From assembly GCA_004431415.1 (NCBI GenBank), contig QPMI01000038.1:1-64000 (forward strand): 64,000 bases of DNA. Reading direction: 5' to 3'. The DNA comes from Cyanophora paradoxa CCMP329. Taxonomy: Eukaryota > Plantae > Glaucophyta. The notes beneath the pieces were generated by a model. The model had not been told where the DNA came from, did no database searches, and saw only the letters and a program-made list of their open reading frames with translations. The position numbers and the translations under genes are program-made. This document shows, piece after piece, positions 8,377-50,834 of this stretch (position 1 is the stretch's first letter; every line of letters starts with the position of its first letter).

Positions 8377-11300
8377 ATGACTGAACCCATAGTAGAAACG
8401 ACAATAAAGAATGCTGTATTGGATAATAATTTTTATATAACCCACGCCAATATACCCAGTGAATCCAATGACCTGATAGTAGATCTAAAAGGGTATGTGA
8501 TGGGAGCTATGGCTTCCAACCTGTGGAATGACATTTTTGGTTACGAGTTTGGTCACATATATGACATAGCAAATGGGATTGGCTATGTGGATGCAATGGC
8601 AGGAACAGCCTTTCGAAATCTAAATTGCAACTGTGTGGGAGGGTGGATGTTTCAGATCTGTTCAAATGTCGATCCTAGTATTGATCCAGCTACTGTGACC
8701 TTTGATTGCAATCTATTCGCCCCTAAAACCATTTTCTCCATCACTTGCAACCTTGTATGTTCAGATGTGCCCATTGTAGCACCTGTAATAGGTGCATCAA
8801 ATATGTATATCCAAAGAAACCCGGTCGTGCATACAGGTGCCGAATTTATATTGGGCGACAACACCCCAATTAGTCGAATCGAACTACCCAATTCTCACAA
8901 GCATTTGTGGGAACATATCACCAATGCCCCATTTACCTATCCGCCCAGTTCTCACGAGCATTTGTGGGAGCATATCACCAATCGACCATTAACCTTCCCA
9001 CCTGATCCACACACTCATGATTATTTGTCTCTCAAAGGTGGTGTTATTTCATCTAATCTTACAATTTCATCAAACCTTACAGTTACAAGTAACATTTATG
9101 CCAGTAACATTTATGCCAGTAACATTTACAGCAGTAACCTATGGGCAAGTAATATTAATGGAAGTAATGTAATAGTCGATTATCTCACTGTGAAGATTGA
9201 AGCAAACCTACCAAATCACCCGACATCGAATGTTGTTTTAGATTGGTTAGCAAAGCAAAAACACACAAAAGCAGATATTACAGATTTTGCCCACACTCAC
9301 ACAAAAGATCAAATAACAGATTTCGCCCACACTCATTTATGGGAGCATATCACGAATCCCCCATCCACCTTCCCACCGGGAAAACACACACATGATTACT
9401 CAGAGATTACTAATAGTAACCACAGGCACCCATGGGATGAAATAGATGAGCAGCCAGTTTTTGCACAATTGAATGCAATCGGAAATGTTTTTAATGGAGT
9501 CACACTTTACCAATCGATTAATACACCTGATAGGCTATTTTTGAATGATCATTACGTAAATCTCAATGGGACATTCACAGGTGAAACAGGCACACCGATG
9601 GTGGGAACTCTTGCAGTAAGATTACCCAGGGATCCAATCGTAAACGGAGTGTATAGTGGCGATTTCAATGTAGGAGTAAATGATACTTTCCCCAGTATCT
9701 ATGTTACGAATTATCACCCAGGAGAAATAGGACAAGAAGCGGATTTTTCAGCAGCAATTCAAGTAAATGTAACGGATCAAAGCGCATATGATGGAGCAAG
9801 ACCTAAGATAGTTTTCACAAGGGAGAAAGTTGTAAACTATCTTCCTGTTGTGGGACAACCCACAGATGATCACGGAAAATGCGAGATTGCATGGATAAAA
9901 ACGACAACAGGTGGCGCCTTAGAAGTCAATCAGAGAATGGCAGCTAAAAACTTACACAATACCACCCTTTCCGGTGTTGTTACAGATGATTACCTCGAAA
10001 GCAAAAACTATGTAGATGATACAGAACTTGCAGCAATTCTTGAAGATTATGTAACAGATACCGAATTAACGTCGGCTCTTGGGGATTATTTACCCCTTAC
10101 AGGCGGGACTCTCACAGGTGATGTGCATGCTCCGAATTTCTTTGTGGACACTCCGAATGATCAGTCATTCCCTGTTGTCCACCTTGGTGCTGAATATGTA
10201 TTAGATCCAAACACTCCATTTAGTCGACTTGAATTACCCAATGTTCACAGGCATTTTTGGGAGCATATCACCAATGCCCCATTAACCTATCCACCCAGTT
10301 CTCACGAGCATTTTTGGGAGCATATTGTCAATCCCCCATCGACCTATCCACCTGATTCACACGATCATGATTATTTACCACTAACAGGTGGAACAATTGC
10401 AGGTGATGTGCATGCTTCTAATTTCTTTGTTACTACTCCGAATGATCAAACATTTCCTGTTGTCCACCTTGGTGCTGAATATGTATTAGATCCAAACACT
10501 CCAATTAGTCGCATTGAATTACCCAATGTTCACAATGTTCGACCATTAACCTTCGCACCTTATCTACACACTCACACAAAGTCAGAGATTACAGATTTTT
10601 CACACACTCACACAAAGTCAGAAATAACAGATTTTGCCCATACCCACACAAAGTCTCAAATTACAGACTTCCCGACATTTGCGACTGTGGCAACAACTGG
10701 AAACTATGATGATCTGATAAATACACCAACATACACTTCACCAACTGATTTTGACGCTACAAGTGGTATTTCCACAGACCGCACAGGAGATTGGAGAGAT
10801 TATTTTGGGCAACCACTTGTAGGTGACACAAGCACTTGGGCAAACACATGGATTGATGGTGATGATGATTGTAGTAGCTGTAAGATGTATTGGACTGTTC
10901 CAACAGACATGAAATCATGTTATATCTATTATACGTGTCAGTATGACAGTAGATACTTTGATGTTGTTGGAATTGAACCATCAAACAATACTTATACTCG
11001 TTTACGAGTAAATGCCTATGCTCCTGGAATTAATCCTGTAAGAGATTTTAAACAGTTTGTTGCAATAAATTGTGAAGGACTTGTTAAAGTTGGTGTTCAT
11101 GGACAAATAGGAAGAATTTATCTTCCAGGTCCGATTACTGTTGGTTGGAGCAAAAACCCCGCTATATCGTCACACAGTGGTTTCCTCCATTGGAATAATA
11201 TATACGGGAAGCCAACAGCTTCTACGACTGTCGGTCCTCACTCTCATTTTAAAGCAGATATCACAGATTTCGCACATAGTCACACAAAGGCAAATATAAC

Positions 11301-11889
11301 AGATTTCGCCCATACTCACACAAAATCGGAAATCACGGATTTCCCAACCTTAGACCCATTTGTAGCGAACACGATCACAGCAAATAATACCATGTATGTG
11401 GGATCCGGTCAAATTTACGAACCAGATGCACCACTTTATTTAGAACAATGGTTTTTCCACAATTCCGCAAATATATACGATAAAACGTTATTATGTCGGG
11501 GAAATGCTTACGCAAGAGCATATTATGCAATGGATGAAACAGATAATACAAAGATTGCAAAACTTGTTTCAGAACAACGGGTCAATAAAGACCAGTATAT
11601 ACAGACAGGGAGTTTTTCAAATTCTTTAACAATCGTAGGTCCGGGTCATTGGGGATTTTCACAGGTTGTCACATTCCCAAAAGCATTTGCGCAAGCCCCA
11701 GAAGTGGTTCTCAATCTGAAACAAGGGTATAATGGTGGTTCATATGTATTGGTATATGGTGTCACAAGTTCCTCAACAACAACCTTTACTGTTAATGTAA
11801 CAGTTTCGGCAAATTATGAATTCAATGAAAGCATCGGACTTTTCCACTATCAAATGAGTTATATAGCAACAGGAAAGATGGTAGCATAA
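8377..11889 (+). CDS. Tail-fibre-like protein with HxH (phage tail repeat-like) repeats and gp53-like/H-lectin C-terminal domain
   Basis: HTHTKxxITDF and HxHxWEHITNxP repeats, YLPLTGGT motifs, and a C-terminal IQTGS..VTFPKAFAQAPEVV..STTTFTV..SYIATG. Confidence 0.8.
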   Translation: MTEPIVETTIKNAVLDNNFYITHANIPSESNDLIVDLKGYVMGAMASNLWNDIFGYEFGHIYDIANGIGYVDAMAGTAFRNLNCNCVGGWMFQICSNVDPSIDPATVTFDCNLFAPKTIFSITCNLVCSDVPIVAPVIGASNMYIQRNPVVHTGAEFILGDNTPISRIELPNSHKHLWEHITNAPFTYPPSSHEHLWEHITNRPLTFPPDPHTHDYLSLKGGVISSNLTISSNLTVTSNIYASNIYASNIYSSNLWASNINGSNVIVDYLTVKIEANLPNHPTSNVVLDWLAKQKHTKADITDFAHTHTKDQITDFAHTHLWEHITNPPSTFPPGKHTHDYSEITNSNHRHPWDEIDEQPVFAQLNAIGNVFNGVTLYQSINTPDRLFLNDHYVNLNGTFTGETGTPMVGTLAVRLPRDPIVNGVYSGDFNVGVNDTFPSIYVTNYHPGEIGQEADFSAAIQVNVTDQSAYDGARPKIVFTREKVVNYLPVVGQPTDDHGKCEIAWIKTTTGGALEVNQRMAAKNLHNTTLSGVVTDDYLESKNYVDDTELAAILEDYVTDTELTSALGDYLPLTGGTLTGDVHAPNFFVDTPNDQSFPVVHLGAEYVLDPNTPFSRLELPNVHRHFWEHITNAPLTYPPSSHEHFWEHIVNPPSTYPPDSHDHDYLPLTGGTIAGDVHASNFFVTTPNDQTFPVVHLGAEYVLDPNTPISRIELPNVHNVRPLTFAPYLHTHTKSEITDFSHTHTKSEITDFAHTHTKSQITDFPTFATVATTGNYDDLINTPTYTSPTDFDATSGISTDRTGDWRDYFGQPLVGDTSTWANTWIDGDDDCSSCKMYWTVPTDMKSCYIYYTCQYDSRYFDVVGIEPSNNTYTRLRVNAYAPGINPVRDFKQFVAINCEGLVKVGVHGQIGRIYLPGPITVGWSKNPAISSHSGFLHWNNIYGKPTASTTVGPHSHFKADITDFAHSHTKANITDFAHTHTKSEITDFPTLDPFVANTITANNTMYVGSGQIYEPDAPLYLEQWFFHNSANIYDKTLLCRGNAYARAYYAMDETDNTKIAKLVSEQRVNKDQYIQTGSFSNSLTIVGPGHWGFSQVVTFPKAFAQAPEVVLNLKQGYNGGSYVLVYGVTSSSTTTFTVNVTVSANYEFNESIGLFHYQMSYIATGKMVA

Positions 11890-11944: not shown

Positions 11945-12943
11945 ATGTCGACTGTGTTTACCCCTGTGTTTTCCTTATCAGCCAGTGCTGTCCACAACGT
12001 GCAACACACTATATATGATCTAAGTGAGTCATTCCCTTCGACTGAGACAGCGAAAACCGATTCTTTCAATGAGACCTCCATTCTCAGAGTCAAAGAACTC
12101 AGAGCTGACAAGGCTGGTGGAATCGTTAAAGCTACTGAACTGATCGTATCGAATCGACCCGCAATATCTTCGGGGCTGGTCACCAAAGAAAATCTATATG
12201 AAGGTCAACAGGATTCCAAAACGACTTTTAATCCGGCTGACAGGAATTCGGCGGCTTTTCAAGTTTACAGTGGCGGGGCATGGATTGGGACTGGACTCTC
12301 AGTTAATGGGACAGTGACAGCTACTAACTTTGCGGGGGGATTCACAGGGTTACTCACAGCAAGTGGTGGAATTAAAACGAATTCGATTGACACTGTGGGT
12401 GCAAATGATAATGTTGTGATTAAACAAAATAACACAACAGTTGCTACAATCACATCAGGAGGGTTGTCAATTAATGCAGGTTACATTTCTAACAGACATC
12501 CTGTTTTCATGTTTTCTACTCCAAACACGAATACAGCTGGAACCGCAGGCACCAACACAAAAATTCCATTCAGTGTTTCACAATTTGAGGTAAACTCACC
12601 CACATTTAGCACTACCAACAATACGTTTCAAGCACCCATTAGGGGTATATACTTCTTTCAAGTGACCTTATATTTTATAGAAGTTACAGCAACATCCACG
12701 GATTTCACAATTGATATATCAAGCAGTTCAAGCTCGTTTACAGCCTATAATGCCCGCAATACTCAGCAGCTTTATAATGCATCTAAAAATGCTTCATTTA
12801 CTGGATTGGGAGTGAGTGCAACTTGGATAGTTCCAATGCAAGCAAACGATACAATATGTTGGTGGCTTTACTCACCACATGCCTACACTTATTTGAATGG
12901 AGGTAGATGCAATGTAAGTGGGTATCTTGTTTCCACATATTAA
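11945..12943 (+). CDS. C1q-domain fibre protein with shared N-terminal module
   Basis: N-terminal RVKELRADK.GG.VK module and a C-terminal C1q signature KIPF..FSTTNNTFQAPIRGIYFF..M.AND.I..SGYLV. Confidence 0.8.
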   Translation: MSTVFTPVFSLSASAVHNVQHTIYDLSESFPSTETAKTDSFNETSILRVKELRADKAGGIVKATELIVSNRPAISSGLVTKENLYEGQQDSKTTFNPADRNSAAFQVYSGGAWIGTGLSVNGTVTATNFAGGFTGLLTASGGIKTNSIDTVGANDNVVIKQNNTTVATITSGGLSINAGYISNRHPVFMFSTPNTNTAGTAGTNTKIPFSVSQFEVNSPTFSTTNNTFQAPIRGIYFFQVTLYFIEVTATSTDFTIDISSSSSSFTAYNARNTQQLYNASKNASFTGLGVSATWIVPMQANDTICWWLYSPHAYTYLNGGRCNVSGYLVSTY

Positions 12944-33395: not shown

Positions 33396-33424
33396 TAAGA
33401 ATACCTTAGAAAAATTAATTAAAC

Positions 33425-33719: not shown

Positions 33720-34553
33720 TTATGGAGCAGTATCCTGCCCGAAAATGGGGAAATATCGATTTGTCCCATAGTATTCAGCATAGGTATTCTGCTTTGCAAT
33801 AAAATCGGTTCTCTCTGCAAACATCACACACTTGTAGATACCAAACTTGGTGGCTCTCACAAGAAACTGATAGTCTTCCAAACCGAAATTGACTCCATGA
33901 TAAGCAATTCCGAAATTGTCATATGGGGTGATCACAACTGCAAAGTTGGGAGTTCCACCTTCAACTTGGCATACAGCATAAACATCTGGTGGGATATCCA
34001 CAACTACCTTGTAGTGGTCACCAATTTCAACAAGAGAGTCTACTACTGCTGTTTGTTCATTCACAACAATTGGGAATATCTTTATAATGTATGGGGCATT
34101 CATGCTGGGGACATAGGTTCGAATTCTTGTGTTGGGATCAATGGGATTGGGTTGATCATTCACAAATAGAGGCGCTCCAACAGCCCCACCAACCCTAAGA
34201 CCATCACCAATATAAGCTCCCCCCGATTTGCAGTTAATAGCTCCCGACCTAGATTCAAAAGAATAAGTAGACAGAGGATCTCCATAGCTATCTGGGTCTC
34301 CATAATGAGCAGAAAAGTTTGCATTTGTGACAAGTAGCTTAGTTGTCTTAACTATTCCATTATTTTTATCACATCTGAGTTCTTGTAATCTCAGCTTGTG
34401 GGTGGAACCAAAGGTGTTCATTGTAGGTTGGACCTCTGTGGATTGGAGACCTTCCACATCATCAAAGGTAGCATGTTGCAGAACATGGTTTGCTGGTGCA
34501 GCTAATGAAAGCTGAGGTGTAATTATTCGTTCAAGTGGGGGTTGCTCAGCCAT
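33720..34553 (-). CDS. Putative virion protein, shared N-terminal module family
   Basis: LSLAAPANH..H...D...GLQSTE..F....LR..ELRCDKNNG.VKTT module; near-identical ortholog at 43619..44449. Confidence 0.75.
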   Translation of the reverse strand: MAEQPPLERIITPQLSLAAPANHVLQHATFDDVEGLQSTEVQPTMNTFGSTHKLRLQELRCDKNNGIVKTTKLLVTNANFSAHYGDPDSYGDPLSTYSFESRSGAINCKSGGAYIGDGLRVGGAVGAPLFVNDQPNPIDPNTRIRTYVPSMNAPYIIKIFPIVVNEQTAVVDSLVEIGDHYKVVVDIPPDVYAVCQVEGGTPNFAVVITPYDNFGIAYHGVNFGLEDYQFLVRATKFGIYKCVMFAERTDFIAKQNTYAEYYGTNRYFPIFGQDTAP

Positions 34554-34576
34554 TTTACATTAAAGGGATATATCTT

Positions 34577-35431
34577 TTATGGGGTTGGGTCATCAATCAC
34601 ATCTGGTTCCATGTAAAATCCTGTTGTGAATATATCAGCAACATTTACACCACGAAGTGCTGATACAGCTGCTATATCTGTTCTCAGTCCCATAATCATA
34701 GTATTGTATACTCCAACCTCAGTGACAAACAGATCATAGGTAAATGTCAAATTGTTATAAACACAATATCCTCTGCCAAAATGGTTCGAAGCTTGAACAA
34801 AGAATAAGTAGTTGTGACCTGGTTGATTATTATTGGCTCTACACATGGAAAGCATTGAAGTGGGAAGAGGAATATTTCTTCTTACTCGATCAGTTCCTGT
34901 AATGGAAACTAATTCCGAATTCTCAAGAGTTACAGAGGATGCAACATAGAAATGCAAAAAAGGTTGCTGTGCAACAGGTGTGTAGAAACGAATTCGTTGT
35001 GGGTTCTCAGCATTTTGCTCTAGAGTATCTGGGACATCATTGTAGGAAACAGATGAAGATAGCTGACCTGAAACTCTGCAGCCTCCACCAATAAAAGCTC
35101 CTCCTGATCTCACAGTAACAGCTGCAGAATTCTTATCGAAATCAAGGGCTTTCAGATCAACACTGTAAGCATCAGGACCTCCATTAGTAGGTTGGAAAAA
35201 GTTAGCATTTGTGACAAGAAGTCGAGTTGTTTTCACCACACCTGAGTTCTTATCAGCTCTCAGCTCTTTAACTCGAATAATCGAATTCTTATCAAAGGAG
35301 TTACCATTGGAATTGGGTCTCTCTGTGGATTCTAAACCACGAACCTCATCATTAACTTCATGCTGGCGAAAGTGCATTGCAGGGGATCCAAGGGAATATA
35401 TTGGAAGTTGAACTCGATTATATTCACCCAT
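34577..35431 (-). CDS. Putative virion protein, shared N-terminal module family (likely start MGEYNR)
   Basis: Same module (IRVKELRADKNSGVVKTT); ortholog at 44473..45327. Confidence 0.75.
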   Translation of the reverse strand: MGEYNRVQLPIYSLGSPAMHFRQHEVNDEVRGLESTERPNSNGNSFDKNSIIRVKELRADKNSGVVKTTRLLVTNANFFQPTNGGPDAYSVDLKALDFDKNSAAVTVRSGGAFIGGGCRVSGQLSSSVSYNDVPDTLEQNAENPQRIRFYTPVAQQPFLHFYVASSVTLENSELVSITGTDRVRRNIPLPTSMLSMCRANNNQPGHNYLFFVQASNHFGRGYCVYNNLTFTYDLFVTEVGVYNTMIMGLRTDIAAVSALRGVNVADIFTTGFYMEPDVIDDPTP

Positions 35432-35779: not shown

Positions 35780-38700
35780 TTATACTTTGACATTTTTAAT
35801 TTGGTCTATTTGATCCTGTAGATCTTTGCATTTTTGGGACAACTCCTTCACAGCTTCAATGAGAACTGGAATTAAACCTGTGTATTCAAGAGATAGGTAG
35901 CCATCGTCTTTTTTAACATTAACTACCTCTGGTATTACCTTTTGAACATCTTGTGCAATTAAACCTAATTTAACTCCATCTTTTTCACTTCCAATTCGTT
36001 TAAAACTCACTCCCTCTAATTTCTCTATTGCTGAAAGAGCGCCGGATATCTTTTTAATATCGGTTTTGTATCTTATGTCACTTCCTTGTGTTAAATAACC
36101 TCCAATCCACATCCATCCTCCATGATACATGTAACAAATATCAGTATCTTGTTCATTTCGGAATACAAGGGGAATATCTCCCCCTCCTTTCAAATATGTA
36201 GAAGTTTGGTTACCGAAATGGATACGATTATATCCATCACTTGAACTAAACCAAGTCCCCACAGATCCTGTTAAGATATTTGGTTTACTATAAACGTTAT
36301 TCCAATGAATATAGCCGGTGTGACCACCATAACTATTTCCTACCCAAATTTTCATGTAACTAATACCCATAATATGAACTCTTCCAATCTTTGGTCTAAT
36401 CCGAATAGTGAGGAATCTATTTCCAAGATGTATTGGAACATTATTTAAACCACTGTGGTTACCATCAGGCGATGTGGCGTATGGTTGATAACTATTCACT
36501 GATGTAATAAAAACTTCATTCCCTTGTCTATTAACTCCCCAAATTTCAAAAAGTCGTGAGTTAGTCCAAGGTAAATAGGTTAAAAATGCTGTTCCTGTGT
36601 GGTATCCATCGGGTATATCGAAGTCAATCCAAGCGGTAGAAGTTTCGTCATCAGATTGATTATTATGGACATATGAACCATAATTATAATATGGATCCCA
36701 TGCTGTACTCCATGCCCATGTCCAACCCTCAGAACATCTATTAAATGCAATACCTCCTACTGTTTTATCTGCTGTGTGAAACTTTGGGACATCATTACCG
36801 TTTATTTGGAGTTTGGTAGTAGCATTAATAGTGGGTGCTGTAATAGTGTTATTCACCCAAAAGTTACCATTACCATATGATTTTAAGATTGCTGCATTCG
36901 CTGAGTTTCTAAATTCGACAGATACACCATCGCCATTTTCATAGCCTCGAATATATGTAGTTTGACCATTTCCAAACCAAATTCGCTCGACTGCATCTAC
37001 TGATTTTAACCATGCATTTGTTGCCCATGTTGCGGTTTGTGGAAGGTCTGCGGCTGAGTAAAATGATGGTTTACTAAATATATTATCCCAAGAGATCATC
37101 CCAACCTCATTATCTGTTGCCCTCTGTCTACTCCACCAAAAACACCTGTAAGATGGATTCTACCTTTTCGACCTTGAACATATATTTTTGTGTAAAACTC
37201 ACAGTTAATAGAGATGAAAAGTATACTGGATTGTGTTCCATCATGTACTGATGCTTGAATACCTTGATAAACATTTAAACGCCGAAGGAAATGTTGATTA
37301 CCATTAGCTGTTTGACCATAGATGTCAAAATATCTACAATTAGACCAACACATGGTTTGAATATAAAACGTTTTCATTCCTGTGGGGACATTCCACCTCA
37401 TCCAAAAAGCGCTACAATCTTCATCATTTTGTGGTGTTGTATAACATCCTGTTTGTCCGGTTCTTGGTGTCCATCCTAAGTTCCAATTATTTGCGCTTCT
37501 ATATGTCGAAACCACATCTAATTGGTCGAAATCGTAACCTTTTGGTATTGTGGTTCCACCAATTTGTAAAGTGGTAGCATTCACAGTTCCTGTTACAGTT
37601 CCACCTGTAAGAGGTAAATAATTCCCAAGAGCTGCTGTTAATTCGGTATCTGTTACAACATCTGTAAGAGCTAATTGTAATTCTGTATTTGTTACATAAT
37701 CTTTGTTTTCTAAATAATCATCTGTAACAACACCAGAGAGGGTCTCATTGTGTAAGTTTTTTGCTGCCATCCTCTGATTGACTTCTAAGGCTCCTCCTGC
37801 TAATGTTTTAATCCAGGACATTTCGCATTTCCCATAGTTATCTGATGGTTGTCCCGCAAGTGGGACATAATTGAATTTTGGATCGACTGAATATTATTTT
37901 AGGTCTGGAGCCATCAGTTGCACTGACATCTGTTACATTTACTTGCATAATGGCATCCTTGTCATCATATGCTGCTGGATCAGATGGGAGAGGTGGTAAT
38001 CCTGATGTCAATGGGATGTCCTCATTATAATAACTTGTTAAGAAGATGCCTGGTTTGGTATCAATCACCCCAACACCACCTGCTGAAATCATTTGGATTC
38101 TTGTTGGTTGTTTGATGTATAATTCACCTTCCATTGTGGTCCCTGCATCAATGCCTTTTCGATTGACATAATAATCATTTAGTTGTAGCCTTTCAGGTAT
38201 GGTATTACTCTGGTAGAGACTCACACCATTTGTAAAGTCTGTCAAAATATTGCCTGATGATGCAAAAGTTGGTTGTTCATCTATTTGACTCCAAGGGTGT
38301 CTGTGGTTGCTATTGGTTATTGTTGAGTAATCATGAGTGTGTGAATCAGGTGGGAAGGTTAATGGAGGATTTGTGATATGCTCCCATAAATGAGTATGGG
38401 CGAAATCTGTGATCTGATCTTTGGTGTGAGTATGTGCGAAATCTGTTATTTGGTCTTTTGTGTGAGTATGGGCGAAATCTGTGATCTGATCTTTGGTGTG
38501 AGTATGTGCGAAATCTGTTATTTGGTCTTTTGTGTGAGTATGGGCGAAATCTGTTATTTGGTCTTTTGTGTGAGTATGGGCGAAATCTGTTATTTGGTCT
38601 TTTGTGTGAGTATGGGCGAAATCTGTTATTTGGTCTTTTGTGTGAGTATGGGCGAAATCTGTTATTTGGTCTTTTGTGTGAGTATGGGCAAAATCTGTTA

Positions 38701-40282
38701 TTTGGTCTTTTGTGTGAGTATGGGCAAAATCTGTTATTTGGTCTTTTGTGTGAGTATGGGCAAAATCTGTAATCTGGGCTTTTGTGTGAGTGTGATTTTG
38801 AATCCAACCTTGAACCACATTAGAGGTTGGATGATGTGGTAAATTTGCATTGCTTGTAACTGTAAGGTAATCTATTACAGTATCAGGTGAGGTTATTTTT
38901 AATCCTCTGTAAATATTCAGAGTCTGGGTATGAGTGAATCCATATTTTTGTTGAATGTAATACCTCACAGCATTCTTTTCAGAAGTTGTCAAAGCCCTAT
39001 TGAAAACAATCAACTCGGAAATACCACCATTCACAATATTACCAAATCCGAAATGATTGACAGTATTATCTGGTAGATAATTTGTTCCTACAAGTGTTTC
39101 AATATCTACTCCATTTAACCCGACTGTGTAGCTGCTGGAAGTAATTGTTTGGTCAGTGTAATACCATGTATTTATTAAAGAAGGAACCGTAATAACTGGG
39201 CGGGTTTGGGATGCTCCATTAATAGTGAACTGGTTCATTCCAATAGCAGTAGAAGATGTTGCCCCATAATAACAATATCGTGATGGAAAGGCGCTTCTGT
39301 AAAGTCTCAAGTGAACTTGCATAGAAGAGGCAGTTGGATGATATTTTCCCACAAAGAAAAATGTAAGCCCATTTGAGAAATCAATAGTTCTTGCAGCAGA
39401 GGTATATGCATAAAAAGTGCCTGTTGGGTTTGAAACACTAACTTGGTTGTTGATTTCGGGATTGGTGTAATAGGAACTGGCTCCGGAGATAAACAAGTCT
39501 GGAACAACTGAATTCGGGACTCTGCTTACTATAGTTGTATACATTGCTGATTGACCTGGTACTCCTGATGCCTTCCAAGCAAAAATGCAGTTCGAGATAT
39601 TTGATGCTGGATCAAAGCTTGGTGGGACATCATACCATTCTTCGTAAACCTGATTCATGGTATTGAAATTGCAAGAGCCAATTGTGAGGATTCCATTTAC
39701 TTTCAAATTGCTGGTCTCTATATTGCTACTGTAAATATTACTATTAACTGTGAGGTTTCCTGTGATTGTCCCACCCACAAGAGGGAGATATTTGGATAGT
39801 TCTGCTGCAAGTTCAGCTTCTGTAATAAATTGATCAAGCATAGCAAGGGTTACAAAATTAACAAGGATTACTGCAGTAAGGTAATCCTCTGTGACCACTC
39901 TCGAAATATTTTCGTTGTGTATGTTTTTTGCAGCCATCCTCTGATTGGCTTCCAGAACCCCACCATAATCTGTTTTAATCCATGCAAGCTCTGCCCTCCC
40001 ATAATTATCATTTGCAGTTCCCACTATGGGAATGTAGGAATATTTATCTCTGCTGAATACTATCATTGGTCTTGAGCCATCTAAACTGCTTACATCTGCT
40101 ACATGAACCTGTATAGCAGAGTTGAAATTTTGGTAGGTTGCTGGGTCTGTTGGGACTCTGAATGTATCTGTGGGAATGTCAGCCTCCATGTAGCTTGACA
40201 CAAAGATATTTGGTATGGTTGCTCCTGGTTCAGGTGGTGGATCATAAGAGCCTGGTAATGTCCTAATATGAAGTGGTCCTCT
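35780..40282 (-). pseudogene. Large fibre gene (LamG-like domain, HxH repeats, C-terminal peptidase S74 intramolecular chaperone); 5'-truncated, two frameshifts
   Basis: ORFs 37838..40357, 37096..37821 and 35780..37099 join through single-base indels in A/T runs (~37878, ~37140), restoring collinearity with 8377..11889. SDIRYKTDI..GLIAQDVQKVIPEVV..LEYTGLIPVLIEAVKEL is S74. ISELIVFNRALT..E...V..Y...KYG is LamG-like. Confidence 0.8.
38391..38795. repeat. 36-bp coding tandem repeat x11 (HTHTKDQITDFA)
   Basis: The TGAGT(A/G)TG anchor spans 38391 to 38787, which is 11 x 36 bp. Confidence 0.97.
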
Positions 40283-41469
40283 CACTGGGAGCCAGAAATT
40301 AAGTTTACCATATGGTAAACTTAGGGGGTGGTAAAGGTGTGCCGTTTGCGTTACCACACGGTAAAGTCAGGGTGGTAAAGTCAGGGTGGTAAAGTTGGGG
40401 TGGTAAAGTCAGGGTGGTAAAGTTGGGGTGGTAAAGTCAGGGTGGTAAAGTCAGAGTTACATCCTGCTGCTTTCCCATATCCATGCCAGCGCTGTTTTTC
40501 CGTGCATGCTGATATATATATTACATGCAATTCACATCTTCCTCGCTAGCTACGTATACTGCGCATGCAGAGCTAGCTATAGCTCGCGCTGCATCGCTGC
40601 AGCGCCTATAGCTAGCTAAAGGCGCGACACACAGCTGGACCTGGGGGCGTGCAAAGGCGATGGCCATGGTCAGCTCAAGCTTTGGATGTACAGCGATTGC
40701 ATTGAGAGCGATAGAGGGGACAGCGCAGGTTATCACCTATGGGCCCAGCCGGCAGCCCCGCCTGCTCGCTCACCTTCGAGCAGCAAGGCCGCCGGCAGAC
40801 CCCACTGCTTGCTCACTTCAAGCAGCAGGGCCGGCCAACTGCAAATAGCGTGCTTTCAAAAAGGAAGGGTGCACAGACCTCTAGATCTTCGATTCTAGAT
40901 GAGAATGCTCTTGACAGCTCTGCGGGAGACAATACAGGCAGTGGTCAGCTGCATATCGATGCATATGAGAAAGAGGATCGGAAATCGCAATCTAACGCCT
41001 ACGGGCCCAGCCGGCAGCCCCGCCTGCTCGCTCACCTTCGAGCAGCAAGGCCGCCGGCAGACCCCACTGCTTGCTCACTTCAAGCAGCAGGGCCGGCCAA
41101 CTGCAAATAGCGTGCTTTCAAAAAGGAAGGGTGCACAGACCTCTAGATCTTCGATTCTAGATGAGAATGCTCTTGACAGCTCTGCGGGAGACAATACAGG
41201 CAGTGGTCAGCTGCAGATCGATGCATATGAGAATGAGGATCTGAAATCGCAATCTAACGCCTACGGACCCAACCGGCAGCCCCGCCTGCTCGCTCACCTT
41301 CGAGCAGCAAGGCCGCCGGCAGACCCCACTGCTTGCTCACTTCAAGCAGCAGGGCCGGCCAACTGCAAATAGCGTGCTTTCAAAAAGGAAGGGTGCACAG
41401 ACCTCTAGATCTTCGATTCTAGATGAGAATGCTCTTGACAGCTCTGCGGGAGACAATACAGGCAGCGGT
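40283..41469. mobile_element. Probable CACTA/EnSpm-type element end inserted in the copy B fibre gene
   Basis: Starts with CACTG where fibre homology to copy C ends. It has a 24-bp palindrome TAAGTTTACCATATGGTAAACTTA (40300-40323) and seven 14-bp subterminal repeats GGTAAAGT(CA/TG)GGGT (40360-40454). The other end is not seen. Confidence 0.5.
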
Positions 41470-42730: not shown

Positions 42731-43132
42731 CTAACTCGGAAATCGCAATACTCTATGTTTCTCCGATTTCTCCAACCCTGAAAACACACCTGTTATTCTC
42801 TCATCTATCTCATGAGATACTCTCGTGGTTTTTCTTTCTGCTTCTAATCCACAACTGAATATATCAATCGCCAACATACCTTCATTTGAGTAACAATGAG
42901 CAGTGCAATGGCTCTCATCCAGCAGAAGAACCATTGCAAAACCAGGAGGAGAAATACCACCATCGAAAATCTCGCAATGCTTGTGAACTACTCGAATACC
43001 TTGCTCTTGAATAATAGTTTGCAAGAACTGCATTAACCAACTGGTTGTTGTCTCCAATTCCTCCATTCCTACTGCTAATTGGGTTCTGAATTTGTAATCC
43101 AGCATCACATGGAAGCCTCGATGAGTATTCAT
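42731..43132 (-). CDS. speD: S-adenosylmethionine decarboxylase proenzyme (SpeD family)
   Basis: GFHVMLD..PPGFAMVLLLDESHCTAHCYSNEGMLAIDIFSCG. Confidence 0.9.
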   Translation of the reverse strand: MNTHRGFHVMLDYKFRTQLAVGMEELETTTSWLMQFLQTIIQEQGIRVVHKHCEIFDGGISPPGFAMVLLLDESHCTAHCYSNEGMLAIDIFSCGLEAERKTTRVSHEIDERITGVFSGLEKSEKHRVLRFPS

Positions 43133-43172
43133 TTATGAATAATTTAGAAAAATTAAAAACGCGATTGGTAGA

Positions 43173-43322
43173 ATGCGAACCATCTTAGCAAGAGTGCTAC
43201 CTTATGAGTTGGTGGATATCATCCTGCTGCATTACCATAAGACCTGTCCAAACTGTTTTGATACATGCATAATCACGAAGGGAAAATGGGGAAAGATCCT
43301 CATTTCTCTCTCAAAGATCTAA
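43173..43322 (+). CDS. 49-aa micro-ORF with an F-box-like start and CxxC
   Basis: Translated by hand: MRTILARVLPYELVDIILLHYHKTCPNCFDTCIITKGKWGKILISLSKI. It fills the gap between speD and the Zn gene and is absent from copy B. Confidence 0.45.
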   Translation: MRTILARVLPYELVDIILLHYHKTCPNCFDTCIITKGKWGKILISLSKI

Positions 43323-43591
43323 TCAAAGTACAGTACCACTGGTTTATCATCTATCACAATTCCTGATGTCGTCTTTTTTCTATATGCATGAGAGGATTTC
43401 TTGTTGCATTCTCTGCATCCACTTCCCCTTACATGATTAAATGGGTATGTTTGGAGGATCTTGTTGCATTTAAGGCATCTAACAGAGACCTTCTCTTGCG
43501 CTTTCTTATAGACTGTCTCACTATAATCGAATTTAGAATCACCATGAACCATCATTGCAGATTCTATGAATTTCTTTGTTTTATCATCCAT
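43319..43591 (-). CDS. DUF723/CapR-like Zn-binding protein
   Basis: Ortholog of 33425..33697. Confidence 0.7.
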   Translation of the reverse strand: MDDKTKKFIESAMMVHGDSKFDYSETVYKKAQEKVSVRCLKCNKILQTYPFNHVRGSGCRECNKKSSHAYRKKTTSGIVIDDKPVVLYFD

Positions 43592-43618: not shown

Positions 43619-44449
43619 CTATGGAGCAGTATCCTGCCCGAAAATGGGGAAGTAGCGATTTGTGCCGTAATATTCTGCATATGTATTCTGTTTTGCAATA
43701 GCATCGGTTCTCTCAGCATAGAGAATGCATTTGTAGATACCAAACCTGGTGGCTCTCACCAAGAACTGGTAATCTTCAAGACCGAAATTCACTCCATGAT
43801 AAGCAATTCCGAAATTGTCATATGGGGTGATCACAACTGCAATATTTGGGGTTCCACCTTCCACTTGACAGACAGCATAAACATCTGGTGGAATATCCAC
43901 GACCACCTTGTAGTGGTCACCAATCTCAACAAGAGAATCAACTACTGATGTCTGTTCATTCACAACAATTGGGAAGATCTTGATAATATATGGTGCATTC
44001 ATACTGGGGACATAGGTGCGAATTCTGGTGTTGGGATCAATGGGATTGGGTTGATCATTTACGAAAAGAGGCGCACCAACAGCTCCACCAACCCGAAGAC
44101 CATCACCAATATATGCTCCCCCCGTTTTGCAGTTAATAGCTCCCGACCGAGATTCAAAAGAGTAAGTAGAAAGAGGATCACCATAACTGTCTGGGTCTCC
44201 ATAATGGGCAGAAAAGTTTGCATTGGTGACAAGGAGTTTCGTTGTCTTAACTATACCATTATTTTTATCACATCTGAGTTCCTGCAATCTCAGTTTGTGG
44301 GTGGAACCAAATGTATTCATTGTGGGTTGCACTTCTGTGGATTGGAGACCTTCTACATCATCAAAGGTAGCATGCTGCAAAACGTGATTTGCAGGTGCTG
44401 CTAATGAGAGTTGGGGTGTAATAATTCGTTCTGGTATTGGGGCAGCCAT
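43619..44449 (-). CDS. Putative virion protein, shared N-terminal module family
   Basis: Ortholog of 33720..34553. Confidence 0.75.
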   Translation of the reverse strand: MAAPIPERIITPQLSLAAPANHVLQHATFDDVEGLQSTEVQPTMNTFGSTHKLRLQELRCDKNNGIVKTTKLLVTNANFSAHYGDPDSYGDPLSTYSFESRSGAINCKTGGAYIGDGLRVGGAVGAPLFVNDQPNPIDPNTRIRTYVPSMNAPYIIKIFPIVVNEQTSVVDSLVEIGDHYKVVVDIPPDVYAVCQVEGGTPNIAVVITPYDNFGIAYHGVNFGLEDYQFLVRATRFGIYKCILYAERTDAIAKQNTYAEYYGTNRYFPIFGQDTAP

Positions 44450-44472
44450 TTTACATTAAAGTGATATATAAT

Positions 44473-45327
44473 TTATGGGGTTGGGTCATCAATCACATCT
44501 GGTTCCTGGTAAAACCCTGTTGTGAAGATATCTGCAACGTTTACCCCTCGAAGTGCCGAAACAGCTGCTATATCTGTCCTCAGTCCCATAATCATAGTAT
44601 TGTAAACTCCAACCTCAGTTACAAACAAATCATAGGTAAATGTCAAATTGTTATAAACACAATATCCTCGACCGAAATGGTTTGATGCTTGAACAAAGAA
44701 TAGGTAATTATGACCTGTTTGATTGTTGTTTGCTCTGCACATAGATAGCATTGCTGTGGGAAGCGGAATATTTCTTCTTACTCGATCAGTTCCTGTTATA
44801 ATAACCAATTCCGAATTTTCAAGAGTGACAGAGGAAGCAACATAGAAATGTAGAAAAGGTTGCTGTGCAACTGGTGTATAGAAACGTATTCGTTGGGGAT
44901 TCTCTACATTTTGTTCAAGAGTATCTGGGACATCATTATACGAAACTGATGAAGAGAGTTGTCCTGAAACACGACAACCACCACCAATAAATGCTCCTCC
45001 TGATCTCACAGTAACAGCAGCAGAATTCTTATCGAAATCAAGGGCTTTCAGATCAACACTGTAAGCATCAGGACCTCCATTAGTAGGTTGGAAGAAATTC
45101 GCATTTGAGACAAGGAGCCGAGTTGTTTTAACCACACCAGAATTCTTGTCTGCTCTCAGTTCTTTAACTCGAATAATCGAATTCTTATCAAAGGAGTTAC
45201 CATTGGAATTGGGTCTCTCTGTGGATTCTAAACCACGAACTTCATCATTCACTTCATGCTGGCGAAAGTGCATTGCTGGGGATCCAAGGGAATATATGGG
45301 AAGTTGAACTCGATTATATTCACCCAT
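44473..45327 (-). CDS. Putative virion protein, shared N-terminal module family
   Basis: Ortholog of 34577..35431. Confidence 0.75.
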   Translation of the reverse strand: MGEYNRVQLPIYSLGSPAMHFRQHEVNDEVRGLESTERPNSNGNSFDKNSIIRVKELRADKNSGVVKTTRLLVSNANFFQPTNGGPDAYSVDLKALDFDKNSAAVTVRSGGAFIGGGCRVSGQLSSSVSYNDVPDTLEQNVENPQRIRFYTPVAQQPFLHFYVASSVTLENSELVIITGTDRVRRNIPLPTAMLSMCRANNNQTGHNYLFFVQASNHFGRGYCVYNNLTFTYDLFVTEVGVYNTMIMGLRTDIAAVSALRGVNVADIFTTGFYQEPDVIDDPTP

Positions 45328-45651: not shown

Positions 45652-46671
45652 TTAAACGATGCTAATCAATTCACCCGAAAGACCTGTTATACTTGAATAT
45701 GAACCAGAGGAGCTTGTGACCAGTGTCACATACTCATTTTGAGCAAGATTTAGAATGCAAGAGAAACACAATGCTTTATTGGTGTGTGTGCTGCTGTGGA
45801 TTTGGGAAATGCTTAAACCCCCAGGATCTGCATCATTCACTTTTATAAATAATTCGATAGTAGCTGATGTGGTCGAAAAAGAGAACACTGAAAATCGATA
45901 GTGTCCTGCAACAGGTGCTGTAAATCTTCCTGTTGATGTGCTAAATGCATTGGTATTGTTAACCCGAACTGTTGCCCAGTTTATCAGAGCAGCAGCAGAA
46001 GTAGCAGTGTGAGCATATCCAAGTTGAACTGAAAATCGTGGATGTGACGTTTTAAGATAGCATCCTTCATTTACTGTCAAACTATTGGCTTCAAGAGTAG
46101 CAACAGTGTTACTATTTCGTTTTAACAAAAAATTGACATCGGCTCCTGTATCAATTTCAGGAGAGACAACCTTAGTAGATGCTGTGATTATTGATTGTGT
46201 GTAGTTAGGAATACTTATACCAGCATTTGCTGTAACCAAACCTGTAAATGTGCTTGTTCCTGTAATGTTTACTTGATTTGCTGTAAGGGTTCCATCAATC
46301 ATTGCCCCATCTCCAATATAAGCGCCTCCACTTTTTACTACAAGAGCTGAGTTATTGATGGTGTTGTCAAAAGTAACAATCTTTGGTGTGGTGAACCCTC
46401 CCACATCATCATAAATTGCTGAATCTGATACAATCTGACCTGATTGAACTTGGTTCTTGTTTGAAACTATTAAACCTGTGGTTCTCACCCTCCCTCCATT
46501 TCGATCACATCGAATTTCTTTGCATCTGATCACAGAATGTTGAGAGAATGAATCGGCTCCTATGGTCTCTGTGCAAATGAAACCTGGGGTAGCATCTGTT
46601 ACTGTATGGTTGAGTTGATGCAATTTCGGCGCTGCATAACAGAAAACAGGGACAGCTATTTGAGTGGTCAT
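45652..46671 (-). CDS. C1q-domain fibre protein with shared N-terminal module
   Basis: HPRFSV..INW..V.VN...FSTSTGRFTAPVAGHYRFS..LNLAQNEYV..SGELI. Confidence 0.85.
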   Translation of the reverse strand: MTTQIAVPVFCYAAPKLHQLNHTVTDATPGFICTETIGADSFSQHSVIRCKEIRCDRNGGRVRTTGLIVSNKNQVQSGQIVSDSAIYDDVGGFTTPKIVTFDNTINNSALVVKSGGAYIGDGAMIDGTLTANQVNITGTSTFTGLVTANAGISIPNYTQSIITASTKVVSPEIDTGADVNFLLKRNSNTVATLEANSLTVNEGCYLKTSHPRFSVQLGYAHTATSAAALINWATVRVNNTNAFSTSTGRFTAPVAGHYRFSVFSFSTTSATIELFIKVNDADPGGLSISQIHSSTHTNKALCFSCILNLAQNEYVTLVTSSSGSYSSITGLSGELISIV

Positions 46672-46693
46672 ACTTTACATTATGTGGATAATA

Positions 46694-47764
46694 TTATGAT
46701 GAATGGACAAGGATACATCCAAAAAAGTATCTGATATTGTAGTTTACACCAGCATCTCCGGAATTGACCAGCCTGATCGAATCATTAGCTACAAGGTTCA
46801 CAATAATATCAAAACCAACAGTTGCATTTCCTGTTGCATTTTGAGAGTTAGAGTTAATTCCGAATGTTGTCCCATTTTTAAGCAAAGAGGTCAAATAAGT
46901 ATTGCTCTTAGCAGAATTGTAACCAGACGCATGGAAAAATACGAGGTAGTTTCCAGAAACAGGTGCAGTAAAACTTCCTGTTGCAGGATCGAAATTATTT
47001 CCATGGTTGACTATGACTCCTGTTGATGAGAACAAAGTTGTTCCACTTGCAGCGAAGTTTGTATCTTTTGAAGTATTGGGCGCTTGTTTTGTTGCAAAGA
47101 AACGAGGATGACTACTTAATTTGAGATACTTGTCTGTCGGAAGTGTAAGGAGCTGAACAGTTGTATTATCTGTTTGAGTTGTCTTTCCAAGAGAAAATAC
47201 TGTATTTCCATTTCGTTTGTAGTTCACATTTGCGTCTGTCCCATTATCTGTCTCAGGTGTGTTTATTCTTGTAGTAGCTGTGATAGTTTGATACTGAAAG
47301 TTGCCTGAGAGACCACCATTAAAGTTCATCAATCCTGTGAATACACTTGTCCCACTCACATTTAATTGGTTTGCTGTAACAGTTCCTGCTACATTTGCTC
47401 CATCTCCAATGTAGGCACCACCACTCTTCACCACAAGAGCGGAATTATTACTTGTGTTACCAAAAGTAAATATCTGAGCTGTGGTAAATCCACCTACATT
47501 ATCATATATTGCTGAATCTGGGACTACTTGACCTGCTTGAACTTGGTTTTTATTCGAGATTATAATGCCTGTGGTTCTAATCTTACCATTATTGCGATCA
47601 CATCGAATTTCTTTGAATCTGAGTATAGTATTCTCTGTGAAAGAGGTATTGCTTGTGGTTTCAGTGCAAATATACCCAGGGGTTGAATCAACTACTCCAT
47701 GAGAGGTGCTGTGTAGTGATTTGGCTGCAAGTTCATAGTTTGGGATTTCTAATAGAGAGGTCAT
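46694..47764 (-). CDS. C1q-domain fibre protein with shared N-terminal module
   Basis: HPRFFA..VNHGNNFDPATGSFTAPVSGNYLVFF..LLKNG..VNLVANDSI..FFGCILV. Confidence 0.85.
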   Translation of the reverse strand: MTSLLEIPNYELAAKSLHSTSHGVVDSTPGYICTETTSNTSFTENTILRFKEIRCDRNNGKIRTTGIIISNKNQVQAGQVVPDSAIYDNVGGFTTAQIFTFGNTSNNSALVVKSGGAYIGDGANVAGTVTANQLNVSGTSVFTGLMNFNGGLSGNFQYQTITATTRINTPETDNGTDANVNYKRNGNTVFSLGKTTQTDNTTVQLLTLPTDKYLKLSSHPRFFATKQAPNTSKDTNFAASGTTLFSSTGVIVNHGNNFDPATGSFTAPVSGNYLVFFHASGYNSAKSNTYLTSLLKNGTTFGINSNSQNATGNATVGFDIIVNLVANDSIRLVNSGDAGVNYNIRYFFGCILVHSS

Positions 47765-47789
47765 CTTTGTAATAGTGTGAGAATCTTTA

Positions 47790-50700
47790 TTATGCTGATG
47801 CTATCCCATGGATTGCAATTTGAAGCCACTGTGGTTGAATGGTTACCCATCCTGCTGCCCAAATAACAAGATTGATTGTGGTAGAGGTTGTTGAGTTGCT
47901 TGATATTCCTATTTTATAATCGATTTCCACATTTGTTGCAGGTAGTCCCTGCAATGTTACAACAACAGATGGAGCAGATGCAAAGGCAGGACTCCAATTT
48001 AATGTAATGCTATGGTTTTGCCTTGCTGAACTGCCCCCAATTTGAGGATTCGCAATTGTCATTTCATGTCTCCCTTTTCTAATCAGGTTATCAAGCATGT
48101 ATTGAGGAGCCAGCTTAGTAACCTTTGAATTGTCCCGAGGATCCATGACCCACATTTCTCTTGCATATGCATTTCCACGAACAAGTAGGGTTTTATCCTG
48201 ATAGTAAGATATAGAGTTAGTAGAAAGGGTTGAATTGTGGAAATTCCAAATAACAGGAGGATCAGGCATAATATATGGGTCATAATCGAGAAAGTAACCT
48301 GATCCAATGAGAAGGTTTGCATTTGCAGTGATATTATTTGCTGTAAAGGGATCGAGGGTGGGTTTATTGGTCAGGTCATTGTAGTTGCCCGAAAATAAAG
48401 CGGGTTTGTTATAGATATCTGTATTCCAATCATGAGTATGTGCAAAATCTGTAATATCTGCTTTGACATGAGTGTGAGCAAAATCTGTAATCTCACTCTT
48501 GACATGAGTGTGTGCAAAATCTGTAATCTCACTCTTGACATGAGTGTGTGCAAAATCTGTAATCTGTGACTTTGTGTGAGTGTGTGCGAAATCTGTGATT
48601 TCAGATTTAAAATGAGTGTGAGCGAAATTCGTAATATCTGCTCTTGTGTGGGTGTGTGCAAAATCTGTTATCTGGGATTTTGTGTGAGTGTGTGCGAAAT
48701 CTGTGATCTCTGCTCTTGTGTGGGTATGTGCTCGATTATTCAGATCAAGGAAGCTACCTGAATATGCAACAGGGTGTAGATTAGATGGGGTGGGTTTATT
48801 AATGAGATCATTATAATCTCCTGTGAAAGATATGATTTTCAGTTCACCCCTTCCAACATAATCGGAAGGGAGGTCAATCTTAATGGGCATGATAGCTGGA
48901 TCATCAGGTATCTCATACTCACCTCCTGGATGTACAACTGGGAATGTTTGATTGCTTTCAGTATGAACAAAGAAGTTGCATGCTGTTACTGTTCCATCAA
49001 TTACCCCACCTGTGAGAGGGAGGTAATCTCCTGTCACACCAATGTTTATACCTGCAATGATTGTATTAAGTTCTGTTTCATCTATGTAGTTTTGGGCTTG
49101 CAGGTAATCCTCTGTAACCACTCTTGAAATGGTCTCATTGTGAATATTCTTTGCAGCCATCCTCTGATTGGCTTCCAGAACCCCACCATAATTTGTTTTG
49201 ATCCATGCAAGCTCTGCCCTCCCATAGTTATCATTTGCAGTTCCCACTATGGGAATATAGGAGTATTTATCTCGACTGAAAACTATCATTGGTCTTGATC
49301 CATCCAGACTGCTCACATCTGCAACATGAACCTGTATAGCTGCATTGTAATTTTGGTAGGTTGCTGGGTCTGTTGGAACTCTAAAAGTATCTGTGGGTAT
49401 GTCAACCTCCATGTAGCTTGACACAAAGATATTTGGTATGGTTGCTCCTGGTTCTGGTGGTGGATTATAAGAGCCTGGTAATGTTCTAATATGCAATGGT
49501 CCTATCATAGCTGAATTTGCAAGTGTCCCTTCCACATGAACATAGTGGTGATTCAAAAAGATCCTTTCAGGGACATTGCAAGTCTGGTAAAGAGAAACTC
49601 CCAGAGTAGCAAGAGGCTCTACTTTTGCGAATTCTGGTTGGTCATTGATCTCATCCCAGGTGTGTTCATGTTTGCTTGGTGGAAACTCAGTTGGTATTCC
49701 ATCAATGTCACCCCAATCATGCCTGTGATCCTCTGGTGGGAATTTCGCTGGTTTCCCTAAGATCTCATCCCAGTCATGGTTGTGATCCTCTGGTGGAAAT
49801 CTGGCTGGTTTGTTATTGATCTGCTCCCAATCTGGAAAGAACTCCCAAATCTCTGGGCGAAATCCATCTGGTAATAATTCTTCATGGGGTTCATAAGGTT
49901 GCTCATAGTCAACCACTGGTGGTTCGTGACCATCTGCTAAGTATTCCTCATGGGGTTCATAATTCTGCTCATATTCATACTCTTGTGGATCTAAACCATC
50001 TGGTAAATACTCTTCCTCATTGGGATCATATTGATCATATTCATACTCTTGTGGGTCGAAACCATCAGGTAGGTATTCCTCCTCATCTGGAACGAATTGG
50101 TATTCGTCAAGCTCCAAAATATCAATTTCAGGAGGTAAATATTGCTCATCAATTTGCTTTCTTGGTTCAATTATCGGTTTATTTCGAACCTGCTCCCAAC
50201 TCACAATGTGTTGCCCAAAAGGAACTGTCTCATCTGCTGTGTACTCTCTTCCTGGTTGCTTTTTCGGTGTTAAATCTGGTGGATCCCAAGGAAGAGGGAA
50301 GGGAACTGGGACAGGTCCATAATATTCAAAGATCTCTCTGATGGTCTTCTCACTTACAAGTTTCTCACCATTTGCATAGACATTGCTTCCATGGATATTT
50401 CGCCATTGCCTGGTTCTGATACCAAGATCTTTGGTGTTGGTTACCAGAGGTAAAAGGTGCCTGTCCATTTCGACAAGGTCTGGGTGTAAATGAATTGTTA
50501 CTGGTTGAGTGGGGCTACTGTTGACAGTGACAGACGCCTTATTCTTTGCTGTATCACCAGGTAGTTGGAAACCGAATTGTGCATTAGAAGCCGAATTCGC
50601 CACAATATCTCTTGGATAAACATTGTTAGTGAACTCGATTTTGTTGGTTTCTCCATGGGGGGCTATCTGTAATATTTCGGGAATTTGTGCAATTGCATTT

Positions 50701-50834
50701 GATCCTTCATTATAGATTCTTAAACCACTCTGATGCCCACCCTTCTCATTTTGAACATTGAATATTAACCTACCACTATCGAATCGAGTTGGAATATCTG
50801 GGTGGGTTCCACTGGTTTTCAGTTTGAAACTCAT
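47790..50834 (-). CDS. Tail-fibre-like protein (acidic repeats, HxH repeats, H-lectin/gp53-like C-terminus)
   Basis: The N-terminus resembles 4617..8339 (FD.GRL.F.VQ.E.G). It has EEYLPDG.DPQEYEY repeats, eight HTHxxxxITxFA units and a C-terminal WSPAFASAPSVVVT. Confidence 0.8.
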   Translation of the reverse strand: MSFKLKTSGTHPDIPTRFDSGRLIFNVQNEKGGHQSGLRIYNEGSNAIAQIPEILQIAPHGETNKIEFTNNVYPRDIVANSASNAQFGFQLPGDTAKNKASVTVNSSPTQPVTIHLHPDLVEMDRHLLPLVTNTKDLGIRTRQWRNIHGSNVYANGEKLVSEKTIREIFEYYGPVPVPFPLPWDPPDLTPKKQPGREYTADETVPFGQHIVSWEQVRNKPIIEPRKQIDEQYLPPEIDILELDEYQFVPDEEEYLPDGFDPQEYEYDQYDPNEEEYLPDGLDPQEYEYEQNYEPHEEYLADGHEPPVVDYEQPYEPHEELLPDGFRPEIWEFFPDWEQINNKPARFPPEDHNHDWDEILGKPAKFPPEDHRHDWGDIDGIPTEFPPSKHEHTWDEINDQPEFAKVEPLATLGVSLYQTCNVPERIFLNHHYVHVEGTLANSAMIGPLHIRTLPGSYNPPPEPGATIPNIFVSSYMEVDIPTDTFRVPTDPATYQNYNAAIQVHVADVSSLDGSRPMIVFSRDKYSYIPIVGTANDNYGRAELAWIKTNYGGVLEANQRMAAKNIHNETISRVVTEDYLQAQNYIDETELNTIIAGINIGVTGDYLPLTGGVIDGTVTACNFFVHTESNQTFPVVHPGGEYEIPDDPAIMPIKIDLPSDYVGRGELKIISFTGDYNDLINKPTPSNLHPVAYSGSFLDLNNRAHTHTRAEITDFAHTHTKSQITDFAHTHTRADITNFAHTHFKSEITDFAHTHTKSQITDFAHTHVKSEITDFAHTHVKSEITDFAHTHVKADITDFAHTHDWNTDIYNKPALFSGNYNDLTNKPTLDPFTANNITANANLLIGSGYFLDYDPYIMPDPPVIWNFHNSTLSTNSISYYQDKTLLVRGNAYAREMWVMDPRDNSKVTKLAPQYMLDNLIRKGRHEMTIANPQIGGSSARQNHSITLNWSPAFASAPSVVVTLQGLPATNVEIDYKIGISSNSTTSTTINLVIWAAGWVTIQPQWLQIAIHGIASA

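Follow-up and report, generated by a model that had tools for sequence, protein, structure and literature searches.

Polinton-like viruses (PLVs) encode fibres that carry S74, Laminin_G_3, PF12789 phage-tail repeats and H_lectin, as well as a patatin-discoidin fusion, and glaucophyte PLVs provide the only case of PTR combined with H_lectin and 11 cases of discoidin (Bulzu et al., 2025; PMC12220804). Domain shuffling in phage receptor-binding proteins is established (Smug et al., 2023; PMC10684548). Particles of Gezel-14T and PgVV-14T bear Ltf, a phage-like fibre that is long and rich in repeats, along with a lipase, both proposed to act in attachment and entry (bioRxiv 10.1101/2022.07.28.501842), and the Cafeteria endogenous mavirus-like elements (EMALEs) are AT-rich multi-copy families in a GC-rich host, with retroelement insertions and a recombinant, EMALE02 (Hackl et al., 2021; PMC8547959). 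On PLV fibres, our literature search, with subscription journals and supplements outside its coverage, returned architecture surveys only and no nucleotide-level test of exchange within one genome; the word 'fiber' was not found in the accessible text of PMC10120064 or bioRxiv 10.64898/2026.06.19.733378. Here, we analyse a window of 64,000 nucleotides (nt) of the glaucophyte Cyanophora paradoxa CCMP329 (GenBank assembly GCA_004431415.1, contig QPMI01000038.1, positions 1 to 64,000, forward strand), in which the predicted products of the large genes A, B and C and their relatives are phage-like attachment fibres, belonging to several PLV families within one host genome. We propose, with a probability of about 0.85, that modules of these fibres have been exchanged between virus families.

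An earlier note, made from the DNA letters without database searches, had taken fibre B for a single gene; it is in fact cut at its 5′ end and spread over three reading frames (40357-37838, startless; 37872-37096; 37099-35780), its likeness to C ending at 40284 beside a 14-nt repeat array. Its modules follow the order C-like core, LamG, A-like shaft, repeats, second core, two Trp domains and S74, so that B holds two cores, one C-like and one A-like, a duality missing from the earlier description of its modules. The first core is the near-identical block shared with C: positions 39879-40284 and 49102-49507 align ungapped over 406 nt with 90.9% identity, and with 95.5% amino acid (aa) identity over 134 codons, after which come a linker at 28% and then the end of homology. 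Identity falls across 39879 from 26/30 to 10/30 nt and across about 35465 from 26/30 to 6/30. The B and C pair therefore presents what marks a mosaic receptor-binding protein, a high-identity fragment lying beside non-homologous or saturated sequence.

Because module order alone is compatible with deletions from one long ancestor, divergence was tested. Between the B and C elements, silent divergence (dS) is 0.39 in the core and 0.44-0.53 in the small fibre genes, but 1.5 and 3.6 in two adjoining genes, and of the codons in the core plus two small fibre genes 488 of 658 are identical, compared with 68 of 135 in the neighbouring pair of genes (Fisher p=1.6e-7). A and B share two blocks (9165-9562 with 38882-38161, and 9757-10139 with 37948-37568), each at 75-77% nt identity with shorter stretches up to 82%. 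Along A against the second block of B the share of identical codons runs 4/15, 26/38, 24/52 and 51/71 (permutation max-chi2 p=0.005, n=161), and informative sites uniting B with A, B with C and A with C stand at 48:12:24 and 68:22:26 outside a central segment and at 25:28:28 inside it (p=4e-5, post hoc); A is favoured outside A residues 393-457, and support is even within them. B is near both A (51/71 identical codons) and C (97/124), whereas A and C, with 33/69 in the neck and tip and 66/183 in patatin, are near silent-site saturation (about 0.44). The jumps in silent divergence between adjacent blocks, together with the nearness of B to two fibres that are themselves near saturation, lead us to reject one tree with deletions, the outcome that the earlier note had set against exchange, although the core quartets are congruent. 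The near-identical B/C block, the A/B blocks and the exchange that it had proposed are thus borne out.

The other two fibres are intact. Fibre A has its own N-terminus, followed by His repeats, shaft, core, duplicated beta motif, repeats, Trp domain, repeats, neck and lectin tip; its His-rich repeats have 57-nt and 36-nt units, and it contains two internal duplications with 81% identical codons. Fibre C runs from a D-like N-terminus through acidic repeats, His repeats, core (49102-49637), beta motif, repeats and neck to an H-lectin-like tip, with a 36-nt array at 48432-48731. The 36-nt His-x-His units are 72-75% identical between elements, array a1, which is out of phase, being left out of this comparison. 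The neck and lectin-like tip that A and C were said to share are 39% identical in aa (neck 55%, tip 31%), and both tips match Pfam H_lectin below the cut-off (E 9.5e-5 and 8.5e-4). Likewise upheld is the S74 chaperone at the C-terminal end of B (Pfam E 1e-15, above the cut-off), so that either a C-terminal S74 chaperone or a lectin-like tip, as in phage-type tail fibres, occurs in all three. Two further domains were also confirmed: the W.VPT.MK (Trp) domain is present once in A and twice in B, its copies being at just 31-40% aa and without Pfam or phage matches, and the LamG-like domain of B is supported by an Atlas score of 0.97, the 10 top family matches all falling within a single family or clan, while Pfam Laminin_G_3 is faint (E 0.03, below the cut-off). 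A single-sequence fold of the LamG region (predicted local distance difference test, pLDDT, 31) was set aside.

Many PHROG tail-fibre matches were obtained among the fibre open reading frames (ORFs), and sequence searches of the PDB gave no useful match. For the core domain, a relative was not detected in the protein sets, metagenomes or phages searched: 0 of 1,553 and 0 of 2,842 candidates in a set of 5.8 billion proteins, 0 of 122 JGI metagenome stretches and none among phages, with Atlas scores of at most 0.87. The 14 IMG/VR loci matched repeat or linker portions only, and the sole match among 1.84 billion representatives, a fish leucine-rich-repeat protein, was rejected as a summed-repeat artefact.

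Contigs of four short-read runs (24 runs were listed, 20 of them containing the stretch) were mapped at 85% likeness, giving 3,792-6,419 contigs per run on 33400-52460 and 980-1,456 on 8300-13240; the low depth identical at two loci served as baseline, and the joints and contig pieces listed were 15 of 48 and 15 of 21, and 32 of 18,794 and 32 of 4,650. Over this baseline, near-identical contigs in the four runs reach depths of 13-14 at the Trp domain of A and 1 at the tip adjoining A, 18-21 at the LamG and about 14 (three runs) at the second core of B, 16-17.5 at the tip of C and 3.8-5.1 at the C1q tip adjoining C. Each module type thus occurs, roughly, in about 4-21 near-identical copies, the number differing between adjacent modules. 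At the LamG/shaft edge (38761-39591) and at the switch within the second core of B (37765-38186), contigs run across with 0-1 differing letters; these two junctions are therefore not assembly chimeras. Also in favour of exchange, joints that do not occur in the window recur in 4/4 runs among the joints listed (38293-49677, about 13x; 38434-39341; 8810-9310, about 4x).

Several points weigh against exchange between families. The four cores give the identical quartet in both halves, (A,B-II)(B-I,C), at 28:0:1 and 23:2:2, and one long ancestor with deletions could by itself yield the module order. Several blocks span just 26-54 codons picked post hoc, and the comparison covered three long copies only. 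The depths, rough though concordant across runs, are not copy numbers. The recurrent joints rest on 41-55 letters at 85% likeness, with the intervening sequence mostly unknown; many other joints are repeat mis-mapping, and joints or loose ends within His arrays were set aside as ambiguous. The C-core/LamG junction at 39879 is not bridged among the 32 of 18,794 contig pieces listed. As to where edges lie, 7/14 by hand count fall within 12 codons of a hinge motif or His array, against an expected share of 0.32 from fibre A (p=0.13), and at the sharpest (39879/49102) the Gly-Gly hinge motif is still about 30 codons further on and all His repeats are distant. The recombination that the earlier note called repeat-mediated thus has some edges at repeats, as it had said, but an excess over chance is not clear. 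His boxes of T4 are recombination hot spots, a point on which our literature search found no paper. A major capsid gene was not identified in the window (Pfam, PHROG, PDB, IMG/VR), and an A32-like packaging ATPase was not among the 28 scanned ORFs, all three elements being partial.

Repeated rounds of homologous recombination among the families probably built the patchwork, and their crossovers likely fell in conserved joints: the core, the His-x-His arrays, the Gly-Gly hinge and the anchor of the small fibres would offer in-frame landing sites, at which heads (H-lectin, LamG, C1q, the Trp domain or an S74-capped tip) may be added, dropped or replaced. Several families co-replicating in one cell would be the main setting, good chimeras re-integrating as new families, and such swaps would alter the surface sugars, host strains or helper viruses bound by the putative particle. 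We consider it probable that exchange took place mainly while viruses replicate. Two junctions of B are common to about 14-20 near-identical copies, so the chimeras were amplified after they had formed, which fits exchange in replicating viruses followed by re-integration. In addition, dN/dS is 0.03-0.06 (dN, replacement divergence) in the shared tracts at dS 0.4-0.5, which indicates that these tracts diverged under purifying selection in working viruses and not in dead proviruses, and gives no support to the recombination among proviruses that the earlier note had envisaged.

It appears unlikely that the exchange, though real, took place in the host chromosome, with integrated copies recombining ectopically or converting one another. 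Templates would be plentiful, since summed depth along A rises from 13-37x to more than 400x, with 400-480x baseline across the core; the elements of the window are nested, truncated and cut by a retroelement; and a single local event could account for the baseline-depth tip at 12355-13135. Against this stand the amplification of the B junctions after their formation and the purifying selection just described, and a donor-identical tract was not seen in the window (best 91%).

The proposal that no exchange occurred holds that one long two-core ancestor gave rise to A, B and C by duplication and deletion, the differences in identity reflecting unequal constraint on the domains. It accords with the congruent quartets, with the fit of all modules to one common super-order and with the internal duplications of A, which show that duplication is active. 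It is nevertheless very improbable and largely refuted, since silent sites, expected to be free of protein constraint, jump within one pair, B is near two fibres that are themselves near saturation, and the depth of adjacent modules differs 4- to 14-fold.

The chance is slimmest that part of the patchwork, chiefly the C-like first core of B, is an assembly chimera of collapsed repeats: B is truncated, its frame breaks twice at a single letter, two penton-like genes are likewise disrupted, and the edge at 39879 lacks a bridging contig among the pieces listed, but this core is 9% from C with nearly all differences silent and runs in frame into LamG, other junctions are bridged, and A and C are intact ORFs. 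At the two frame breaks of B, contigs differing by a one-letter indel make up 51-56% and 83-86% of the depth, so most other copies are likely without them; the breaks in the window may be decay or an assembly error. Apparent frameshifts in the Cafeteria EMALEs were unconfirmed on resequencing (PMC8547959). A dedicated switch, whether an invertible cassette or a diversity-generating retroelement, was rejected, as no invertase is among the scanned ORFs, the sole reverse transcriptase sits in a 3860-aa ORF of non-long-terminal-repeat (non-LTR) type, and no near-identical second tip copy is in the window.

Beyond exchange between replicating viruses, we entertain a broader and rather doubtful idea: resident copies might form a standing library of fibre heads, reshuffled on reactivation through shared joints, with chimeras re-integrating as new families, in the manner of an antigenic-variation archive that would retarget protective PLVs to new host surfaces or helper giant viruses, with a core domain lacking any known relative at its centre.

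The fibre genes lie in three AT-rich stretches (GC 34-48%; about 1-13250, 31700-40300 and 41470-54700) separated by DNA of 55-78% GC, which are likely PLV pieces embedded within GC-rich host DNA. A domain scan of 28 ORFs found patatin, patatin-F5/8, S74, C1q, AdoMetDC and rve-like genes in them, a set agreeing with published protist PLVs (PMC12220804), from which the putative assignment is drawn. Multiple copies (980-6,419 contigs per run and stretch), GC-distinct insertion and typical accessory genes are all present, and the A, B and C elements are each partial within the window, where elements are nested, truncated and interrupted by a retroelement. For the capsid candidates at 326-1195 and 2-319, searches of Pfam, PHROG, PDB and IMG/VR gave nothing meaningful; the element extends past the window. 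The broken ORF sets at 1373-2231 (minus strand) and 2139-3070 (plus strand) are penton-like by their motifs; both are disrupted by frame changes, neither has a Pfam match, and the second has two intact relatives at 62-65% identity. In IMG/VR, no match emerged for the penton-like protein, for a small fibre or for ORF 326-1195.

Coordinates of all features are collected in Table 1. The seven small fibre-like genes (11945-12943, 33720-35431, 43619-47764) have a common anchor of about 130 aa, which is 35-64% identical in aa among the five compared, and bear two kinds of tip, C1q-like or unassigned. In run X1, a 1,729-nt baseline-depth contig at 12420-13113 matches from letter 1034 only, its earlier part not fitting the window. 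Gene D has faint H_lectin stretches and a hydrophobic stretch close to its end, and between the N-termini of D and fibre C there is a weak alignment (score 67 against a best of 52 among 300 shuffles); since patatin stands head to head with both, C may be a D-like head joined to an A-like body. The integrase ORF is tied to the C element by position only; its 5′ third is GC-rich, with a tRNA-like stretch seen by eye at about 55020-55110 that ARAGORN and Rfam did not report, and the tRNA and Rfam scans gave no match.

Table 1. Features of the window and of its fibre genes
Feature	Position	Strand	Remarks
Patatin-like phospholipase of A element	3080..4573	-	39% aa to C copy
Fourth large fibre-like gene D	4377..8339	+	First ATG 4620; head to head with patatin
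Fibre A, 1170 aa, intact	8377..11889	+	ORF, domain and repeat analysis
Core domain of A	9466..9996	+	3′ half 79% aa to second core of B, 62-64% to first core of B and to C
Trp-containing domain of A	10864..11214	+	Between two His-repeat arrays; not in C
Neck and H-lectin-like tip of A	11344..11886	+	Distantly shared with C; not in B
Small fibre-like gene beside A	11945..12943	+	Shared N-terminal anchor (high depth); C1q-like tip, baseline depth from about 12355
AdoMetDC gene and Cys-rich ORF, B element	32997..33697	-	Silent sites near saturation against C copies
Two small fibre-like genes, B element	33720..35431	-	96-98% aa to C-element pair, dS 0.44-0.53
Fibre B	35780..40284	-	Cut at 5′ end, three frames
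Rest of B	35780..37567	-	Two Trp domains, frame break near 37135, S74 at about 35921-36082
A-like block of B with second core	37568..38882	-	A-like outer parts on either side of a middle as near to A as to C; frame interrupted near 37873
Array of 11 His-x-His 36-nt repeats of B	38391..38794	-	Repeat search
LamG/concanavalin-like domain, B only	38924..39655	-	Atlas and Pfam
First core of B, C-like	39879..40284	-	90.9% nt to C, dS 0.39, dN 0.023
AdoMetDC gene and Cys-rich ORF, C element	42731..43591	-	Counterparts of B-element pair
Two small fibre-like genes, C element	43619..45327	-	Counterparts of B-element pair
Two small fibre-like genes beside C	45652..47764	-	Shared anchor and C1q tips; first tip about 4-5x baseline depth
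Fibre C, 1014 aa, intact	47790..50834	-	ORF, domain and repeat analysis
Patatin fused to F5/8 (discoidin) domain	50919..52460	+	Head to head with fibre C
ORF with rve-type integrase core	53663..55168	-	Pfam rve E 0.003, below cut-off; PHROG transposase E 5e-11

At their left ends the B and C elements are related (about 71%) and, being cut, have no right-end match in the window that would make terminal inverted repeats. Close to element ends lie the AdoMetDC genes (32997-33395 in the B and 42731-43132 in the C element). Palindromic 9-nt repeat clusters occur near the left ends (32226-32571 and 42258-42698) and arrays of 14, 11 and 12 nt near the other ends (40360-40454, 52911-53258); both are possible candidates for origins or terminal signals. 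Tandem arrays abut the left ends (30057-31022, 482 nt x2; 40736-41471, 262 nt x2.8), with no Rfam match. The retroelement at 13247-27214, which truncates the A element, comprises the 3860-aa non-LTR-type ORF with reverse transcriptase, RNase H and a region that we take to be endonuclease-like, besides 126-nt repeats, and is flanked by 1278-nt inverted repeats of 99.3% identity, the AT-rich portion of which has a 22-nt match to the end of the C element.

In comparison with known systems, the fibres described here resemble in architecture the PLV fibres of PMC12220804, whose Supplementary Fig. S6 and Table S6 may already include elements of this window; that study surveys architectures across hosts, whereas the present comparison concerns nucleotide-level exchange between co-resident families. 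As in phage receptor-binding proteins (PMC10684548), a conserved anchor, a swappable middle and tip and a chaperone occur in several combinations, but here the pool consists of endogenous elements of a single eukaryotic genome, and the core has no detected relative. Ltf of Gezel-14T and PgVV-14T, likewise long, repeat-rich and phage-like, has been seen in virions, whereas our fibres are predicted. The exchange in the EMALEs concerns the capsid module, the word 'fiber' not occurring in the available text of PMC8547959. In the T4 gp37 needle, His-x-His pairs are found and three His of the trimer bind an iron atom (PMC6957217); the pairs are common to both, and by analogy our fibres would be trimers with metal-binding His pairs.

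What the fibre heads would bind can also be set beside known cases. In the Guarani virophage, a deletion in a repeat-rich, fibre-like collagen gene is linked to a new host range (PMC7242381), the 'host' there being a giant virus and the change a deletion, as against a swap between modules here. By this analogy a helper giant virus would be a real alternative target. The earlier note had supposed that the exchange diversifies host range, but since all elements lie in one host genome, the target could equally be host-surface variants or such a helper. In Tetraselmis a giant virus is reported to reactivate endogenous PLVs (bioRxiv 10.1101/2025.10.09.676808), and giant-virus islands are enriched in adhesion genes (PMC13620141). 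Fibre-module exchange is a known process, likely met here in a new, testable setting: one genome with tens of near-identical copies per fibre type and many module combinations is a data set for crossover mapping and tip-binding tests, addressing how PLVs select a host cell or helper virus, and it would carry the arms race of phage tail fibres over to the endogenous viruses of eukaryotes.

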